Virus record (IMG/VR): IMGVR_UViG_2703718823_000018
Direction: 5' to 3' (one strand)
Origin: a virus
Taxonomy: Duplodnaviria; Heunggongvirae; Uroviricota; Caudoviricetes
Length of the DNA: 17,832 nucleotides
The notes below the pieces were generated by a model. That model saw only the letters and a list, made by a program, of their open reading frames with translations, ran no database searches and had not been told where the DNA came from. The position numbers and the translations under genes were made by a program. Position 1 is the first letter of the stretch. Each line of letters begins with the position of its first letter. Of this stretch, positions 545 through 13,773 are shown piece by piece.

Positions 545-550
545 GCATGT

Positions 551-576
551 AAAAAGGCTCCTGCGATGAGGAGCCT
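551..576 (-). terminator. Intrinsic terminator, minus-strand orientation, downstream of the tRNA array
   Basis: Perfect 8-bp stem (aggctcct 555-562 / aggagcct 569-576); on the minus strand it is followed by TTTTT (complement of 551-555). Confidence 0.5.
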
Positions 577-883
577 GGATATATGCCTAATCTCTGTATA
601 CAGCATGATGCCGGGTGCCTCCCGGTGAGTTCAGTATCAGCACCTGAACCCGCACCAGATAAGGGATATAACCAACCACCTGTCGCTGATATGCCCCTCC
701 GCACAGGGGGATTCACCATGCCAGTTTCTTTTAACAAATACTCAGTCTGACAGGCAACTGTCAACTGACTGAATTGTGAGACATTTAAAATTTTCGGGGC
801 ATGACTGATACCCGGCTAACCACCTGATGCTTCCTTTTTTAGCAACAAACAGGTCCACCAAAGTGAGACAGAAAAAATAAGTG

Positions 884-960
884 TGGCGCGTTGTACTGGA
901 TTCGAACCAGTGACCGATTGCTTAGAAGGCAATTGCTCTGTCCGGCTGAGCTAACAACGC
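884..960 (-). tRNA. tRNA-Arg (anticodon UCU)
   Basis: Reverse complement gcgttgttagctcagccggacagagcaattgccttctaagcaatcggtcactggttcgaatccagtacaacgcgcca folds as a cloverleaf: 7-bp acceptor stem, TTCGAAT T-loop, anticodon loop cTTCTAa, 3' CCA. Confidence 0.85.
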
Positions 961-973
961 ATGATGCTGATAA

Positions 974-1050
974 TGGACCGCCATCGAGGACTCGAACCCC
1001 GCGCAGCCAGCTCCGAAGGCTGGCGCTCTATCCCGATGAGCTAATGGCGG
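974..1050 (-). tRNA. tRNA-Arg (anticodon UCG)
   Basis: Reverse complement ccgccattagctcatcgggatagagcgccagccttcggagctggctgcgcggggttcgagtcctcgatggcggtcca: acceptor ccgccat/atggcgg with a C1:G72 pair, anticodon loop cTTCGGa, TTCGAGT T-loop, CCA end. Confidence 0.75.
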
Positions 1051-1059
1051 TATGTGATA

Positions 1060-1135
1060 TGGTGGCCCTTGCTGGATTTGAACCAGCGACCTGGCGATTA
1101 TGAGTCGCTCGCTCTCACCACTGAGCTAAAGGGCC
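1060..1135 (-). tRNA. tRNA with CAU anticodon, most likely tRNA-Ile2 (ileX/ileZ-like); Met cannot be excluded from the anticodon alone
   Basis: Reverse complement ggccctttagctcagtggtgagagcgagcgactcataatcgccaggtcgctggttcaaatccagcaagggccacca: cloverleaf with anticodon loop cTCATAa. Closely resembles the E. coli ileX sequence as I recall it. The Ile-Arg-Arg trio downstream of Q is typical of lambdoid and Stx phages. Confidence 0.8.
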
Positions 1136-1175: not shown

Positions 1176-2234
1176 TCATCCATTCTGACTGACTAAATCC
1201 TGTACTTCCCTGACCGTCTGCTCAAAACGTTCAGTCTCCAGCTCAACGCCAGTTGCACGACGCCCCAGCGCCATCGCAGCTTTGACTGTCGAACCCGACC
1301 CCATGAAGAAATCTGCAACCAGGTCACCCGGACGACTGCTCGCACTGATTATCTGCTGCAGCATTTCTGCCGGTTTTTCGCACGGATGTTTCCCGGGATA
1401 GTACTGCACCGGTTTATGCGTCCACACATCCGTGTACGGCACCTGCGCAGTTACGCCAAAATACCGCCGCAGATGCTTATATTCACTCTGCAGTTCCGCA
1501 TACTGCCGGTTCAGTGAAGTATACGTCTCCAGCAGCTGGTGGTGGGGCTTTTCCAGTTCACCGCGCTGATGCTTCTCTTCTGCCACCCGGGCAAACAGCG
1601 CCTGTAATTTCAGATAATCGCTTTCGTTCGGTAGCTGCCACTGACCGGCACTGAACCAGTGCGACACCATGTTTTTCTTTCCTGTGGCATCCACTATCTG
1701 TTTTGCCGTTATCCCCAGGGCAGCACGCGCATCACGAAAGTAAGCAATCAGCGGAGCCATCACATGCTGTTTCAGTGCCCTGCCCTTCGCCTCATACCCG
1801 GCATCTTTCGGGCGATACGGCCCCTGATAATGTTCCGCGAACAGAATGCGCTCTGTGGCGGGGAAATACGCCCTCAGGCTTTCCTTGTTGCACCCGTTCC
1901 AGCGTCCGGACGGCTTCGCCCAGATAATATGGTTCAGCACACTGAAGCGTTCACGCATCATGATTTCGATATCAGATGCCAGGCGATGGCCACAGAACAG
2001 GTAAAGACTTCCGGCAGGTTTCAGCACCCGCCAGAACTGCGCAAGACACTGGTCCAGCCATTTCAGGTAATCATCGTCGCCCTTCCACTGGTTATCCCAG
2101 CCCTCAGGCTTCACTTTAAAGTACGGCGGGTCCGTGACTATCAGGTCAACAGAATTTTCGGGTAACGACCGGATAAATTCCAGGCAGTCGGCGTTGATTA
2201 ACTCACAACTGGATATTTTTACAGTGTTAAACAT
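1176..2234 (-). CDS. Orphan DNA methyltransferase (N6-adenine or N4-cytosine, beta-class motif order)
   Basis: 352-aa ORF with motif IV VTDPPYF near the N-terminus and the AdoMet motif FFMGSGST near the C-terminus. No restriction endonuclease partner is visible. Confidence 0.8.
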   Translation of the reverse strand: MFNTVKISSCELINADCLEFIRSLPENSVDLIVTDPPYFKVKPEGWDNQWKGDDDYLKWLDQCLAQFWRVLKPAGSLYLFCGHRLASDIEIMMRERFSVLNHIIWAKPSGRWNGCNKESLRAYFPATERILFAEHYQGPYRPKDAGYEAKGRALKQHVMAPLIAYFRDARAALGITAKQIVDATGKKNMVSHWFSAGQWQLPNESDYLKLQALFARVAEEKHQRGELEKPHHQLLETYTSLNRQYAELQSEYKHLRRYFGVTAQVPYTDVWTHKPVQYYPGKHPCEKPAEMLQQIISASSRPGDLVADFFMGSGSTVKAAMALGRRATGVELETERFEQTVREVQDLVSQNG

Positions 2235-5511: not shown

Positions 5512-5545
5512 TGAAAATAAAAACAAAAACCCGCCGAAGCGGGTT
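5512..5545 (-). terminator. Intrinsic terminator of the hok transcript
   Basis: On the minus strand: aacccgc-TTCG-gcgggtt hairpin followed by TTTTTGTTTTTATTTT. Confidence 0.55.
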
Positions 5546-5613: not shown

Positions 5614-5769
5614 TTACTCCTCAGGTTCGTAAGCTGTGAAGACAGTGACCTCCGTCTGGCCGGTTCGGATTCGTACCTCGCAGAGGTCTTTCCTCGTTAC
5701 CAGTGCCGTCACAATGACGGTAATACAGATGACGATCAGGGCGACTAACATCGCCTTTTGCTGCTTCAT
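5614..5769 (-). CDS. hokD: Hok/Gef-family type I toxin (HokD/RelF-like), 51 aa
   Basis: Translation MKQQKAMLVALIVICITVIVTALVTRKDLCEVRIRTGQTEVTVFTAYEPEE: transmembrane helix plus conserved RKDLCEVR and TEV..FTAYE blocks of Hok proteins. AGGAG 8 nt upstream of the ATG. Absent from the ORF track (below 60 aa). Confidence 0.9.
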   Translation of the reverse strand: MKQQKAMLVALIVICITVIVTALVTRKDLCEVRIRTGQTEVTVFTAYEPEE

Positions 5770-5825
5770 AGCCTGCTTCTCCTTGACCTTTCGGTCCGTA
5801 AGAGGCTAATCTCTATGTGTCGCAT
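5766..5825 (-). CDS. mok-like upstream ORF (19 codons) coupled to hok
   Basis: ATG at 5825 (MRHIEISLLRTERSRRSRL); its TGA overlaps the hok ATG (cTATGAag). The uORF start lies inside a hairpin (tctatg-tgtcg-cataga, 5812-5828). Analogous to mok but much shorter than plasmid R1 mok. Confidence 0.4.
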   Translation of the reverse strand: MRHIEISLLRTERSRRSRL

Positions 5826-6027
5826 AGATATGGCCTCAGATTAATGTTAAGCGTCTTGCAGGACGCGTAATGTTAACTGGGGCTTTTCTCTATCTGCCTT
5901 TTGGTGTTCATGCCTGAGACAGATAGCCTCAAGCACCCGCAGTTATTCTACTTAACTAAGATTTCCCCGCAAACCGTTTTTGTCCGGCACAGTAAATATC
6001 CAACTAAACCAATGGCGTTCGCTGTAT

Positions 6028-7284: not shown

Positions 7285-7641
7285 TTATTCAGTTCTGGAT
7301 TTTGTCGCCCTGCGTATCCGCGCTTTCGCGTTACGCTCAATCTGAATTAGCTTTTCTATATTTTTTCGCCTTTCCCGCTCCTCCTGGCGCAAGTGCCTTA
7401 CATCATCTGCCAGTCTGGTTTCTCTTTTCGCCACAGAGAGCATCCAGTCAAATGGCTCCACAACTGCACCGCAGATTTTACAGCGGACCTGACGCTCTTT
7501 TTCGTCAACCCGGACAGAGGCGTGATGACAATATGGTCTTTCCGATGGCTCATAAAGAAAATTAACCTGATTACGAGGGTCATCCTCTTTTACCGGAAAT
7601 AAAACGATATTGCTTAACTCATCCTCTGGTTTTATTTCCAT
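7285..7641 (-). CDS. Hypothetical protein with putative zinc-ribbon (118 aa)
   Basis: ATG at 7641 with AGGAGAGG upstream. Contains C-H-H...C-x2-C (PYCHHASVRVDEKERQVRCKICG) and a basic C-terminal tail. Confidence 0.55.
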   Translation of the reverse strand: MEIKPEDELSNIVLFPVKEDDPRNQVNFLYEPSERPYCHHASVRVDEKERQVRCKICGAVVEPFDWMLSVAKRETRLADDVRHLRQEERERRKNIEKLIQIERNAKARIRRATKSRTE

Positions 7642-8080
7642 GCTCCTCTCCTTTGATGCGAATGCCAGAGACGCGTAATGCGTGTTCTAGGTCAATCAGG
7701 TAAAGCCAACTGCCATTTTCTTTAGGTATCATGACATGTCGCTCATCTGCATTTATCGGGTGTCCATATCGAAGGTCGTAGCGAGTCGGTAATTGAACTT
7801 CCCGCGCTTCCAGTTCAGCAATACGCTTGCTCCCATCAGAGATAACGCCTTCGTAATACTCACGCTGCTCTTTGAGTTGTGATTTTGCTTCTTCCAGTCC
7901 ATCCAGCAAATCAGCGATAATATCCGCTTCCCGATGACGGATGTGACGCTTAAACGCAGCAAGAGCCGCATCACAATCCCGTTCAGCATTTGGGCTGTCC
8001 GGGATAGCCTGATACCACGCCAGCGTCGACTGATAGTTTTGTGCTGCCTCACGAAGCGCCTCATAGTTAACCTCTCTCAT
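7619..8080 (-). CDS. Hypothetical protein (153 aa)
   Basis: ATG at 8080 with GGAGGTGG upstream; ATGA overlap with the upstream stop. Confidence 0.6.
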   Translation of the reverse strand: MREVNYEALREAAQNYQSTLAWYQAIPDSPNAERDCDAALAAFKRHIRHREADIIADLLDGLEEAKSQLKEQREYYEGVISDGSKRIAELEAREVQLPTRYDLRYGHPINADERHVMIPKENGSWLYLIDLEHALRVSGIRIKGEEHGNKTRG

Positions 8081-8373
8081 TGAGCCACCTCCTGATAAAT
8101 CACTGCATGCCCCAGTTTCTCCGCCAGTGCCAGCTCTGCCTTAGCGCCCGCTGACCGCTGCCAGCCATTCAGCATGTAAATCGCATCCACACAACGAATC
8201 ATTGCCATGCAAATATCCATGTAGTGCGGCTGTGTCAGCCCGTCCGGAAGTACTGCCGGGTTTAAGACGGTATGCCCTTCCCGTTTCAGTTCCTCTTCCG
8301 CCTTGTGAAACGCCTCACGGTTGAAATTTTCATATCCCGTCATTGGACCGGCAATATAAACTCTGCCCCTCAC
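8077..8373 (-). CDS. DUF4406-like protein (nucleoside 2-deoxyribosyltransferase-like fold), 98 aa
   Basis: GTG start at 8373 overlapping the upstream stop (GTGA), with AGGAGG 9 nt upstream. RVYIAGPMTGYENFN...VLNP is the characteristic N-terminal motif of this fold. The longer ORF-track start would overlap the upstream gene. Confidence 0.55.
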   Translation of the reverse strand: MRGRVYIAGPMTGYENFNREAFHKAEEELKREGHTVLNPAVLPDGLTQPHYMDICMAMIRCVDAIYMLNGWQRSAGAKAELALAEKLGHAVIYQEVAQ

Positions 8374-8762
8374 TCCATCACCTCCTGAAAGTTTCCCCGA
8401 TAGAACGCCAGCACACGCTGCATAACTTCGCTCTGGCGGCACTCACGACAAATTATGTTCTGCCGTCTGTTGTAACGACGTATTTCTCCGTCAGGTAACT
8501 TTCGAATCAGTGTCGGGTCAGCAGCCTTCTCCGGTATCTTACGCCATACGCGATACGCCTGCTCTGATGGAAATACCCCGCAACCAGAGAGCCAGACATC
8601 ACCACTGGCCGCAAGCGCACCAGATAAACGACGAATAGCGGTCTTACTGACACCCGTTTTATCTGCCAGTTGTCGAAAAGTTTCTCGTCCGCTCAGGCGC
8701 ACGAATTCCACAATGCGCGCCTTCACTTCTTCCCGCTCTTCTGGTGTAAATACTTTTGCCAT
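8370..8762 (-). CDS. Helix-turn-helix DNA-binding protein (130 aa)
   Basis: ATG at 8762 with GGAGG 5 nt upstream. HTH-like segment RETFRQLADKTGVSKTAIRRLSGAL and a C-x2-C pair near the C-terminus. Confidence 0.6.
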   Translation of the reverse strand: MAKVFTPEEREEVKARIVEFVRLSGRETFRQLADKTGVSKTAIRRLSGALAASGDVWLSGCGVFPSEQAYRVWRKIPEKAADPTLIRKLPDGEIRRYNRRQNIICRECRQSEVMQRVLAFYRGNFQEVME

Positions 8763-8777
8763 AAGCGCCTCCGGCAA

Positions 8778-11886: not shown

Positions 11887-12294
11887 ATGAAAAACGAAAC
11901 CTTCGGTGCTCGCCTCTTATACAGGCGTAAAAAATTAAAACTGTCTCAGGCCGCATTAGGTAAGCTGGTCAAAGTGGCTCACGTAACAATTTCTCAATGG
12001 GAAAGAGATGAAACACAGCCAGCGGGGAAGAGATTATTCGCACTGAGCCAGGCGCTTCAGTGCTCGCCGACTTGGCTTCTTTTTGGAGATGAAGATAAGC
12101 AACCAGGCGAACCGATCTCAGATAATCAGCCAGTTAATCTGACAGAAGATCAAAAAGAGTTGCTTCAACTGTTCGACGCACTGCCTGAGTCAGAGCAAAA
12201 GGCTCTGTTGTCAGAGATGCGTGCTCGAGTTGAGAATTTCAACAAACTTTTTGAAGAACTACTCAAAGCTCGCAAAAGAAGCGCAAATAAATAA
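11887..12294 (+). CDS. dicA: DicA-like HTH (XRE-family) prophage repressor, 135 aa
   Basis: N-terminal HTH (LKLSQAALGKLVKVAHVTISQWERDETQP), no LexA-type peptidase domain; blocks such as FALSQALQCSPTWLLFGDEDKQP and MRARVENFNKLFEELLKARKR match my recollection of K-12 DicA (135 aa). Confidence 0.85.
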   Translation: MKNETFGARLLYRRKKLKLSQAALGKLVKVAHVTISQWERDETQPAGKRLFALSQALQCSPTWLLFGDEDKQPGEPISDNQPVNLTEDQKELLQLFDALPESEQKALLSEMRARVENFNKLFEELLKARKRSANK

Positions 12295-13344: not shown

Positions 13345-13402
13345 TTTCTGGTGACGTTTGGCGGTATCAGTTTTACTCCGTGACTGCTCTGCCACCCTTT
13401 TT
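13345..13402 (+). ncRNA. dicF: DicF small RNA
   Basis: tttctggtgacgtttggcggtatcagttttactccgtgactgctctgccaccc followed by TTTTT matches my recollection of the 53-nt DicF sequence at all but about one position; located between ydfA and dicB as in Qin. Exact ends are approximate. Confidence 0.8.
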
Positions 13403-13584: not shown

Positions 13585-13773
13585 ATGGAAACGTTATTAC
13601 CAAACGTTAATACGTCTGAAGGTTGTTTTGATATTGGTGTTCTGCTCAGTAACCGGGAGTTTACGGAAGATGCCATTAAGATGAGAAAATATGAACCTTA
13701 TCTTCTCAATGATAATTCCATACTTTCCAGAATTGCCCTTCTTGAACTTGGTATTATCGGAGAACAGCAGTGA
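13585..13773 (+). CDS. dicB: DicB-like cell-division inhibitor (62 aa)
   Basis: ATG at 13585 with GAGGA upstream. METLLPNVNTSEGCFDIGV...FTEDAI closely matches the DicB N-terminus as I recall it. Confidence 0.8.
   Translation: METLLPNVNTSEGCFDIGVLLSNREFTEDAIKMRKYEPYLLNDNSILSRIALLELGIIGEQQ

Follow-up and report, generated by a model that had tools for sequence, protein, structure and literature searches.

A DUF4406 gene in the early operon of an Escherichia coli lambdoid prophage encodes a minimal protein of the nucleoside 2-deoxyribosyltransferase superfamily, possibly a deoxynucleotide N-glycosidase

What does a gene of 98 codons, overlapping its neighbours on both sides in the early region of a lambdoid prophage, encode, and is its product likely to be an active enzyme? 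The question is raised by a 17,832-nucleotide stretch of DNA from a virus of the class Caudoviricetes (IMG/VR record IMGVR_UViG_2703718823_000018), hereafter called the window. The gene belongs to the DUF4406 family and is already known as a routine accessory gene of a common, annotated family: RefSeq holds an identical protein (WP_062850911.1, "DUF4406 domain-containing protein"), a close copy of the gene occurs in 1,210 of 5,426 complete E. coli genomes (22%), and a relative is present in 519 phage records. No biochemical assay of any DUF4406 protein was found in the literature, where the terms DUF4406, PF14359 and DUF1937 led to annotation mentions or to nothing.

A coupled accessory gene and its surroundings

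The gene, its junctions and its two neighbours are laid out in the window as follows.

8077..8373, minus strand: DUF4406 gene, starting with GTG and coding for 98 aa before its stop (translation, PF14359 match, RefSeq CDS WP_062850911.1)
8370..8373, minus strand: GTGA overlap, in which the GTG start (8373..8371) and the TGA stop of the DUF977 gene (8372..8370) have TG in common
8381..8386, minus strand: Shine-Dalgarno sequence AGGAGG of the DUF4406 gene, 7 nt 5' of the GTG and within the end of the DUF977 gene
8077..8080, minus strand: ATGA overlap between the DUF4406 TGA (8079..8077) and the ATG of the Ead/Ea22-like gene (8080..8078)
8093..8088, minus strand: Shine-Dalgarno sequence AGGAGG of the Ead/Ea22-like gene, followed by 7 nt and the ATG (read from the sequence)
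8370..8762, minus strand: upstream gene for a DUF977 HTH protein ("LygF"; Pfam DUF977, E 3.6e-41)
7619..8080, minus strand: downstream Ead/Ea22-like gene, 153 aa (Pfam Ead_Ea22, E 9.5e-12; RefSeq annotation)

The reverse complement of 8077..8373 is open without an internal stop and translates into 98 aa, beginning V(M)RGRVYIAGPMTGYENFN and ending IYQEVAQ before the stop codon. The list of open reading frames also offers a 121-aa frame with a GTG at 8442, which was rejected as the DUF4406 gene because homologues begin M-K/R-[IV]-Y just ahead of strand beta1 and because RefSeq/PGAP places the gene on exactly these 297 nt in the prophage of E. coli STEC2018-607, which is 100% identical. Matches to Pfam and PHROG, together with the dN/dS ratio, far exceed chance and identify the frame as a genuine gene; the ratio of 0.12, obtained from 24 distinct alleles, indicates purifying selection.

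The initial annotation had placed the gene in an early operon, joined by 4-nt overlaps to an HTH protein upstream and a 153-aa protein downstream, and this arrangement was upheld throughout. Both overlaps are read in the sequence, and the same gene stands in the RefSeq-annotated identical prophage. The upstream product is a DUF977 protein with HTH-type matches (RefSeq start, ATG at 8762) that is filed under PHROG 142, "Ren-like exclusion protein," and the downstream product is Ead/Ea22-like by its Pfam match. In related prophage loci, the CAGGAGG...GTGAGG junction is conserved, and nearly all of 80 such loci have the GTG start with its GTGA overlap, including those with other upstream genes. 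DUF977 directly precedes the gene in 59 of the 80, the Ead/Ea22-like gene lies downstream in 40, and the ATGA junction with the downstream gene is found in 38. The overlaps and Shine-Dalgarno sites make co-translation with both neighbours plausible, and we regard the gene as a genuine, translationally coupled accessory gene that an E. coli lambdoid prophage carries in its rightward early (pR) operon.

Beyond these prophages, DUF4406 is widespread in the early and DNA-metabolism regions of phages, both lytic and temperate, with very different hosts. The surroundings of its relatives include genes of replication, recombination and nucleotide metabolism (DNA polymerase III beta, RusA, MazG-like proteins, an exonuclease and a dNMP kinase). 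Among the ORFs flanking the gene in 80 diverse viral loci, 73 upstream and 73 downstream, no conserved gene partner was detected, and no informative second Pfam domain was present in 48 long family members, so that the physiological substrate is not constrained by genomic association.

Family membership and predicted fold

The DUF4406 assignment and a fold like that of nucleoside 2-deoxyribosyltransferases (NDTs) had initially been proposed from the motif RVYIAGPMTG, which is indeed present in the translation, and both proposals are borne out. The protein matches Pfam DUF4406 (PF14359) with 129.2 bits and E 7.7e-38, far above the curated gathering score of 22 bits and over essentially the full length of the model (residues 4-93 on profile positions 2-91 of 91), and it matches PHROG 355, "nucleoside 2-deoxyribosyltransferase," with E 3.7e-48. 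The family comprises about 19,000 clusters at 50% identity, mostly of phage origin in the search made. Other labels that phage members carry, namely dCMP deaminase, MazG-like pyrophosphatase and hydrolase, were rejected as mis-annotations of proteins that consist of DUF4406 only. Some viral proteins with this fold are named as carriers of a "dATP/dGTP diphosphohydrolase N-terminal domain."

An AlphaFold2 monomer model of the 98-aa protein (pLDDT 91.3, pTM 0.85) predicts a flavodoxin-like alpha/beta fold of the NDT superfamily. The 31 best Foldseek matches in the PDB are all enzymes of this superfamily, with query-normalised TM scores of 0.62-0.78; the top matches include the Trypanosoma brucei NDT (2a0k; E 2.8e-5, TM 0.74), NDTs of Leishmania and Chroococcidiopsis, human DNPH1, MilB and BcmB. 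TIR domains (SPARTA, RPPT TIR) appear among the weaker matches. The model has four strands and the chain ends five residues past beta4, whereas five strands in the order 2-1-3-4-5 are the norm in the superfamily, whose enzymes are homodimers or higher oligomers made up of dimers; since the protein ends after beta4, it lacks the C-terminal helical extension that serves the active site of the partner subunit. All conserved polar residues lie at the C-termini of strands or the N-termini of helices of the model.

At the sequence level, a search of the PDB with the single protein or with a narrow alignment of its own clade (A1) gave nothing meaningful. The broad DUF4406 profile (A3) recovered 2a0k as the sole significant sequence-profile match (E 9.8e-5), pairing Tyr6 with Tyr, Gly76 with Gly and Glu80 with the nucleophilic Glu. 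The superfamily has a further small branch without a characterised member, DUF1937 (PF09152), represented in the PDB by a hypothetical protein of P. aeruginosa (1t1j). It has the comparable motif L-x-G-W-x-x-S-x-G-x-x-x-E and matches weakly but consistently in the C-terminal half: the Pfam match (E 1.6e-4) covers residues 50-93 only and is below the gathering threshold, and 1t1j scores E 0.27 with the broad profile.

A predicted active site with an unusual cysteine

Conservation was scored in the 147 nearest cluster representatives and in 80 distant viral members, 78 of which were scored at the Tyr and Asp positions. Among the representatives, G9 and S74 are conserved at 100%, E80, G76 and Y51 at 99% and A77 at 96%, and the same holds for the 80 distant members. 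The protein encoded in the window carries all the family-conserved positions: Y-I-A-G-P-M-[TS]-G, N18, F22, N-P-A after beta2, and G-W-x-x-S-x-G-A-x-x-E. The codons for the putative catalytic residues are located as follows.

8356..8358, minus strand: Tyr6 (beta1), counterpart of DNPH1 Y24 and MilB F17, the triad residue and 2'-OH discriminator
8209..8211, minus strand: Cys55 (helix 2), where DNPH1 has its general-acid Asp (D80) and the T. brucei enzyme an Asn
8134..8154, minus strand: S74-A-G76-A77-K-A-E80, containing the Ser/Gly predicted to bind phosphate and the nucleophilic Glu of the S-x-G-x-x-x-E motif

The catalytic Glu, whose presence the initial annotation had proposed to check, is found as E80, which pairs with the nucleophile of 2a0k and with E104 of DNPH1. 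In the superfamily, this Glu opens the helix that follows beta3, within [DS]-x-G-x-x-x-E, and the general acid is carried by the helix preceding beta3. An hhalign comparison with the single human DNPH1 sequence, statistically weak alone (E 0.047), equates Y6/C55/S74/G76/E80 with Y24/D80/S98/G100/E104. These residue equivalences rest on alignments that are consistent but of low identity. The beta1 Tyr/Phe is described as the triad residue that also discriminates the 2'-OH (PMC10603095, PMC4081090, PMC12884076); at position 6, Tyr accounts for 86% and Phe for 13% of the 147 representatives, and Tyr is found in 78 of 78 distant members.

In place of a general-acid Asp, the aligned residue is Cys55, both against D80 in hhalign and against the Asn of 2a0k in hmmsearch. 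Of the nearest representatives, 66% have Cys at this position and 15% have Asp; Asp is present in 73 of 78 distant members, and Cys55 is nearly invariant in the narrow alignment of the protein's own enterobacterial and vibrio clade. On the evidence of these alignments, DUF4406 divides into an Asp-type and a Cys-type branch; the Cys could lower or alter activity. This substitution and the absence of the C-terminal third of the canonical fold are the two features of the protein that go beyond the initial annotation.

A candidate deoxynucleotide N-glycosidase and the alternatives

The reading that we prefer, with a probability of roughly 0.4, is that the protein is a minimal, active and retaining dNMP N-glycosidase-like enzyme that edits or sanitises the nucleotide pool early in infection. 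Its mode of action would resemble that of DNPH1/Rcl, MilB and the phage enzyme DmtZ. A 2'-deoxynucleoside 5'-monophosphate would bind at the C-terminal edge of the parallel sheet, with its phosphate gripped by the G9-P-M-T-G13 loop, S74/G76 and probably R19, and with its base stacked on M11. Glu80, oriented by Tyr6, would attack C1' to form a covalent deoxyribose-5-phosphate-enzyme ester, and this ester would be resolved either by water, making the protein a hydrolase, or by another base, in a phosphodeoxyribosyl transfer. Cys55 would stand at the site of the general-acid Asp/Asn of the other enzymes, and the proposed role would be the editing or sanitising of the dNMP pool during phage replication.

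The first comparison is with DNPH1/Rcl, a 2'-deoxynucleoside 5'-phosphate N-hydrolase (PDB 8qhq, 8qhr, 4fyh). Both proteins have the flavodoxin-like fold (Foldseek TM 0.66-0.73), the beta1 Tyr, a Gly-rich loop after beta1 and S-x-G-x-x-x-E with a phosphate-binding Ser (S98 in DNPH1) and the nucleophilic Glu (PMC10603095). They differ in length (about 145 aa in DNPH1/Rcl, 98 aa here), with about 20% identity; DNPH1 has a fifth strand and a helical extension that gives S128' to the partner site (PMC10603095), both absent here, as well as D80 in place of Cys55 and an E55/H56 element and shielding loop with no counterpart in the protein of the window.

MilB, BcmB and BlsM, N-glycosidases of CMP and hmCMP (PDB 4jem, 4ohb, 4jen, 5vto), provide the second comparison. 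In MilB, the phosphate is bound by S97/G99 and the nucleophile is E103 (PMC4081090), so spaced that S97-x-G99-x-x-x-E103 corresponds to S74-x-G76-x-x-x-E80, and the distance from the Asp position to the Glu is 25 residues in both proteins (C55 to E80 here). The spacing in beta1 is likewise identical, with F17-L-G-A-P-F22-R23 against Y6-I-A-G-P-M11-T12 (PMC4081090). MilB differs in having Phe rather than Tyr as the 2'-OH discriminator, Asp78 rather than Cys55 and Arg23 rather than Thr12; it is also five-stranded, about 170 aa long and encoded in antibiotic biosynthesis clusters, not phage operons. The replacement F17Y is reported to move the specificity of MilB from CMP to dCMP (PMC4081090), and by analogy with this precedent, the alignment of Y6-I-A-G-P-M-T with the MilB segment suggests a preference for deoxy substrates.

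Z-genome phages (Gordonia phage Ghobes, Arthrobacter phage Wayne) offer a phage precedent: their NDT-superfamily enzyme DmtZ both hydrolyses dAMP and transfers dR5P, has a Tyr6/Asn77/Glu103 triad, in which the middle residue is also not Asp, and is linked to dNTP pyrophosphohydrolases (PMC12884076). DmtZ is described as having no sequence similarity to database entries and was compared here through its published description; it is about 145 aa long, five-stranded, often fused to the dUTPase-like DutZ and tied to PurZ0 phages (PMC12884076), whereas the prophage in the window has no Z-pathway genes. The partner site is closed by S128' in DNPH1 (PMC10603095) and by Trp124' in DmtZ, a closing Trp/Tyr being described for DmtZ and NDT (PMC12884076). 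The preferred reading also draws on the purifying selection and on the position of relatives among genes of replication, recombination and nucleotide metabolism. Against it stand Cys55, the missing C-terminal extension and the absence of a conserved gene partner, and it is not obvious why a lambdoid phage whose DNA is unmodified would need to destroy dNMPs.

The alternative that survives best, although unlikely, is that the protein is a true NDT that swaps bases between deoxynucleosides for salvage, as many phage records name it. NDTs (PF05014; T. brucei 2a0k, L. mexicana 6qai, C. thermalis 8pqr, L. leichmannii) are the best structural matches, with aligned Tyr, Gly and nucleophilic Glu; the sole significant PDB sequence match is one of them, in which the general-acid position is also not Asp (Asn in T. 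brucei); the PHROG 355 name agrees; and some phage PF05014 NDTs transfer purines (bioRxiv 10.1101/2025.10.22.683976). However, PF05014 itself was not reached at E 0.01, and the substrates of NDTs are nucleosides without a phosphate. NDTs also continue for about 50 further residues at the C-terminus, and the C-terminal tail needed to complete their active site is absent from the model. The invariant Ser falls where transferases have an Asp in contact with the unphosphorylated sugar: the alignment with 2a0k sets S-x-G-x-x-x-E against D-C-G-T-A-F-E, and NDTs in general have D-x-G-T-x-x-E against S-x-G-A-x-x-E here. In DNPH1 and MilB, that Ser is reported to bind the 5'-phosphate (PMC10603095, PMC4081090), and the invariant S-x-G-x-x-x-E would be the signature of 5'-phosphate-binding N-glycosidases, as opposed to D-x-G-x-x-x-E of nucleoside transferases. 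We favour an active enzyme on 5'-phosphorylated deoxynucleotides over a nucleoside transferase.

Rather improbable is an anti-defence or host-takeover protein whose NDT/TIR-like pocket sponges or cleaves a nucleotide-derived immune signal or an NAD-related molecule. The gene is an accessory part of an early operon, adjoins the PHROG "Ren-like exclusion protein" and has neighbours that differ between phages; its fold is kin to TIR domains, NDT-like effectors are reportedly active in retron immunity, and Cys55 and the absent C-terminal extension suggest a pocket unlike that of housekeeping enzymes. Yet the PADLOC defence models gave no match to the protein, no paper tying DUF4406 to defence was found, the near-invariant Glu, Ser and Tyr favour classic catalysis over plain binding, and the occurrence in lytic and temperate phages of diverse hosts fits a general metabolic role better.

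A ribonucleotide substrate, as for a CMP/hmCMP-type or LOG-like NMP N-glycosidase, is quite doubtful. The structural and weak sequence matches include MilB, BcmB and BlsM, which have two motifs in common with the protein, S-x-G-x-x-x-E and the loop G-P-[FM]-x (PMC4081090), and the minority of family members with Phe at position 6 would suit such a substrate, but the protein itself has Tyr6, the residue that the reported F17Y change introduces into MilB and the deoxy-specific state in DNPH1 and DmtZ (PMC10603095, PMC12884076). It is similarly improbable that the Y-M-D-I-C clade of enterobacteria and vibrios, rather than being a weakened form of dNMP hydrolase, is a distinct type of enzyme, in which a four-stranded minimal NDT fold, a Tyr/Cys/Glu site and an Arg in a different position (R19, not R53) would support a chemistry or substrate outside the characterised NDT superfamily; candidate substrates would be nucleotide analogues that arise by damage or are made in defence, and immune signals derived from nucleotides. 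A catalytically dead remnant kept as a structural or regulatory nucleotide-binding module, the second option of the initial annotation, would account for the Asp-to-Cys change in the triad and the missing third of the fold, but stands little chance against the near-invariance of Glu80, Ser74, Gly76 and Tyr6 over thousands of clusters, the conservation of Cys55 within its clade, the low dN/dS and the Asn at the Asp site of the active TbPDT and DmtZ (PMC12884076).

That the protein is a dNMP N-glycosidase working through a covalent intermediate on Glu80 is a concrete and cheaply testable hypothesis for a large family. If the Y-M-D-I-C clade were a distinct type of enzyme, the gene would represent a phage counter-defence or pool-sanitising function. 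If the proposed N-glycosidase activity is real, thousands of phage genes now called "hypothetical" or mislabelled could be renamed, and DUF4406 would provide phages with a second route, after DmtZ, for cutting bases off nucleotides.

Gene structure and prophage setting

The window covers the immunity-to-nin part of an E. coli lambdoid prophage, in which a CI-like repressor faces a leftward string of genes encoding, in order, Cro-like, YdaT-like, DnaT-domain O-like, lambda-P-like, DUF1627, DUF977, and DUF4406 proteins, followed by an Ead/Ea22-like gene, several small ORFs, hok/sok, DUF968, RusA, and a DUF1133 protein. From the cro region to 5545, a simple scan of the minus strand detected no convincing terminator, and thus the DUF4406 gene lies inside the rightward early operon.

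Features of the DUF4406 gene and its surroundings
8373..8077, minus: DUF4406 CDS, 98 codons plus stop, translated as V(M)RGRVYIAGPMTGYENFNREAFHKAEEELKREGHTVLNPAVLPDGLTQPHYMDICMAMIRCVDAIYMLNGWQRSAGAKAELALAEKLGHAVIYQEVAQ
8373..8371, minus: GTG start, overlapping the upstream gene's TGA (8372..8370)
8386..8381, minus: AGGAGG before this GTG, spacing 7 nt
8079..8077, minus: TGA stop, overlapping the next gene's ATG (8080..8078)
8093..8088, minus: AGGAGG before the downstream ATG, spacing 7 nt
8370..8777, minus: DUF977 gene; longest-ORF start TTG at 8777, abutting the DUF1627 stop
11887..12294, plus: CI-like repressor
5767..5938, minus: sok antisense RNA region, Rfam 107 bits
5614..5769, minus: hokD-type toxin ORF, 51 aa, embedded in the early operon
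5545..5528, minus: terminator-like hairpin, the strongest of the region, after hok/sok
1176..2234: DNA methylase gene
884..1135, minus: three phage tRNA genes, Met-CAT, Arg-TCG, and Arg-TCT
545..750, minus: sRNA STnc100
13346..13397, plus: DicF antisense sRNA, Rfam 70 bits, upstream of DicB
13585..13773, plus: DicB cell-division inhibitor, 62 aa
14054..16525, plus: 'exonuclease', 823 aa

The initial annotation described an early-operon DUF4406 gene with a nucleoside 2'-deoxyribosyltransferase (NDT)-like fold, starting with GTG at 8373 and joined to its neighbors by GTGA and ATGA overlaps, and this observation on 8077..8373 holds in every detail. Both overlaps are read directly in the sequence, gene order and the terminator scan place the gene in the early operon, and the start is borne out by homologues, which begin M-K/R-[IV]-Y just ahead of the first strand, and by RefSeq, which calls the exact 297-nt gene in the 100% identical E. 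coli STEC2018-607 prophage. On the same two grounds, the longer frame in the ORF listing, from a GTG at 8442, was rejected.

Nearly all loci in the 80 closest viral contigs retain the GTG start and GTGA overlap, including those with a different upstream gene; DUF977 is the upstream neighbor in 59 and the Ead/Ea22-like gene the downstream neighbor in 40. Both junctions (8374..8389 and 8081..8096, minus strand) share a cassette consisting of CAGGAGGTG, a few nucleotides, and a start codon overlapping the preceding stop, which suggests modular gene shuffling at a standard coupling joint. Because this Shine-Dalgarno cassette is used twice, the DUF977 (...FQEVME) and DUF4406 (...YQEVAQ) proteins both end with 'QEV', the Shine-Dalgarno sequence read as codons.

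RefSeq starts DUF977 at the ATG at 8762 (MAKVF...), leaving a 15-nt gap to DUF1627; phage Rac-SA53 names the protein 'LygF', and its PHROG is 'Ren-like exclusion protein'. The Ead/Ea22-like protein (7619..8080) weakly matches the MucB_RseB N-terminal domain (E 4.4e-5), which probably accounts for the probably spurious label 'sigma-E factor regulatory protein RseB domain-containing protein' on its homologue in some RefSeq genomes. DicF and DicB represent a dicB operon of the Qin/Rac type, located on the prophage's leftward-early side. The DUF1133 (Q-like antiterminator-like) protein and the methylase gene are followed downstream by the three tRNAs and STnc100, a layout typical of Stx-type lambdoid phages. 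The last ~175 residues of the 823-aa 'exonuclease' are an Rv2179c-like 3'-5' exoribonuclease domain (E 7.9e-67); its first 640 residues, acidic and of low complexity, gave no match.

Family, fold, and distribution

The Pfam DUF4406 model is matched over its whole length (E 7.7e-38), securing the family assignment; the DUF1937 match is sub-threshold, the Pfam scan gave no match to PF05014, and no NCBIfam or PADLOC model matched. The protein also matches PHROG 355, 'nucleoside 2-deoxyribosyltransferase' (E 3.7e-48). The AlphaFold2 model (42 homologues; pLDDT 91.3, pTM 0.85) comprises strands beta1 (4-8), beta2 (35-37), beta3 (64-67), and beta4 (90-93) and helices alpha1 (19-31), alpha2 (48-59), and alpha3 (75-87). 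The 31 best Foldseek matches in the PDB are all NDT-superfamily enzymes, namely, deoxyribosyltransferases of T. brucei, Leishmania, Chroococcidiopsis, Bacillus, and Desulfotalea along with human and rat DNPH1, MilB, and BcmB, with TIR domains appearing only lower in the ranking. A profile built from 78 diverse DUF4406 proteins reached T. brucei NDT at E 9.8e-5, which, together with the Foldseek result, confirms the NDT-like fold.

Glucokinase regulatory protein binds sugar phosphates. Residues 34-52 of the DUF4406 protein (window 8218..8274; conserved V-L-N-P-A-x-L-P-D-G-L-[ST]) repeatedly gave weak matches (E 0.2-1.7) to the mammalian form of this protein (FVLNPAIGPEGLSGS, residues ~245-260 of 4lc9/4bb9), probably by chance.

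The family includes 18,975 clusters at 50% identity with E<=1e-3 (7,668 with E<=1e-10). Close copies, always annotated DUF4406, are present in 1,210 of 5,426 complete E. coli genomes, up to four in each, and 519 phage records, with Arthrobacter, Vibrio, Gordonia, Mycobacterium, and Pseudomonas as the main hosts, hold relatives. In annotated phages, the gene sits among early, DNA-metabolism genes: ReqiDocB7 has DNA pol III beta, RusA, and a MazG-like protein beside it; Lego and Warda have an exonuclease and a dNMP kinase; Optimus has PAPS reductase and a MazG-like protein; and LESphi3, DelRio, and Coral have DNA methylases. Across 80 diverse viral loci (73 upstream and 73 downstream ORFs), no dominant partner emerged; matches included C5 methylase (7), helicase domains, RusA, metallophosphoesterases, and dATP/dGTP pyrophosphohydrolase domains (2). 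BFVD names viral proteins with this fold (216 and 462 aa) as having a dATP/dGTP diphosphohydrolase N-terminal domain, hinting at occasional fusion to dNTP pyrophosphohydrolases; the long members scanned contained no informative second domain. The GenBank labels 'deoxycytidylate deaminase', 'MazG-like pyrophosphatase', and 'hydrolase' on DUF4406-only phage proteins look like propagated mis-annotations: Pfam finds only DUF4406 at the viral loci L083:3001-3537, L084:2938-3345, and L085:2977-3357 (plus a faint DUF1937 match in the last, from Optimus), and L171:2001-2387 and L172:1998-2363 were so judged by length (128 and 121 aa).

Predicted active site

The catalytic Glu, which the initial annotation singled out for checking, is present as Glu80, aligned with the T. 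brucei nucleophile and with E104 of human DNPH1 (sequence verified against PDB chains); it is conserved in 99% of 147 cluster representatives and in 78 of 80 distant viral members. Strongly conserved polar residues (N18, R19, N38, Y51, S74, and E80) all map in the model to strand C-termini or helix N-termini, the ligand-binding side of Rossmann-like folds.

Together with Glu80, the invariant Ser74 and Gly76 make up an S-x-G-x-x-x-E motif shared with DNPH1 (S98, G100, E104), where S98 contacts the phosphate (PMC10603095), and with MilB (S97, G99, E103), where both S97 and G99 do so (PMC4081090), whereas the true nucleoside transferases in the profile alignment have D-C-G-T-A-F-E. It is chiefly for this likeness that we favor a substrate with a 5'-phosphate rather than the 'deoxyribosyltransferase' label. 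The triad Tyr, Y24 in DNPH1, is aligned to Tyr6, which by motif spacing (Y6-I-A-G-P-M-T versus F17-L-G-A-P-F22-R23) is also the counterpart of MilB F17; because F17Y switches MilB from CMP to dCMP (PMC4081090), Tyr6 argues for a 2'-deoxy substrate.

The third triad position is Cys55 in alignments, in place of the general-acid Asp of DNPH1 (D80) and MilB (D78) or the Asn of TbPDT and DmtZ. Of the nearest 147 representatives, 66% have Cys here and 15% have Asp, whereas the residue is Asp in 73 of 78 among the 80 distant loci (L091-L170), which were retrieved using an alignment of family members from actinophages and Pseudomonas phages. Thus, DUF4406 as a whole has the classic Tyr/Asp/Glu triad, and the conserved Cys is a clade feature of the enterobacterial/vibrio branch. 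Asp-type loci carry [YC]-M-R-x-D-[IL], in which residue 53 is Arg, and have Phe/Tyr at 19 (N-[FY] at 18-19), versus Y-M-D-I-C and N18-R19 in the Cys-type clade (codons 8209..8211, 8215..8217, and 8317..8319, minus strand); the Arg appears to have moved from helix 2 to helix 1 as Asp became Cys.

Lactobacillus NDT donates its C-terminal carboxylate to the neighboring subunit's site. The modeled DUF4406 protein ends five residues past beta4, without a fifth strand or the C-terminal extension that contributes S128' to the neighboring site in DNPH1 (PMC10603095) and Trp124' in DmtZ (PMC12884076).

Proposed activity and its alternatives

The best-supported reading, to which we assign a probability of roughly 0.4, is a minimal, probably dimeric, retaining N-glycosidase acting on a 2'-deoxynucleoside 5'-monophosphate. 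S74/G76 and the G-P-M-T-G loop, perhaps along with R19, would hold the phosphate; Glu80, oriented by Tyr6, would attack C1'; and the covalent intermediate would be resolved by water or base, with Cys55 standing in for the general acid. Among phage enzymes, DmtZ is the nearest functional parallel; it hydrolyzes dAMP, transfers dR5P, and has a Tyr/Asn/Glu triad (PMC12884076). The gene itself, its fold, and its residue conservation are established; its activity, substrate, and role are inferred. A true nucleoside transferase is unlikely, given the replacement of Asp by Ser in the motif and the missing C-terminal tail, and an anti-defence protein that binds or cleaves a nucleotide-derived signal is slightly less likely still. 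A ribonucleotide N-glycosidase, disfavored by Tyr6, and an inactive module, disfavored by near-invariant catalytic residues and a dN/dS of about 0.12 (24 distinct 297-nt alleles), both seem improbable.

RefSeq holds the identical protein as 'DUF4406 domain-containing protein', the kinship with NDTs is already reflected in PHROG and many phage annotations, and identification of the gene is nothing new; a literature search found no biochemical study of any family member. The finding is correct and ordinary, and what is added here is small: the case that the substrate may be a phosphorylated deoxy compound, and the split of the family into Asp-type and Cys-type members.
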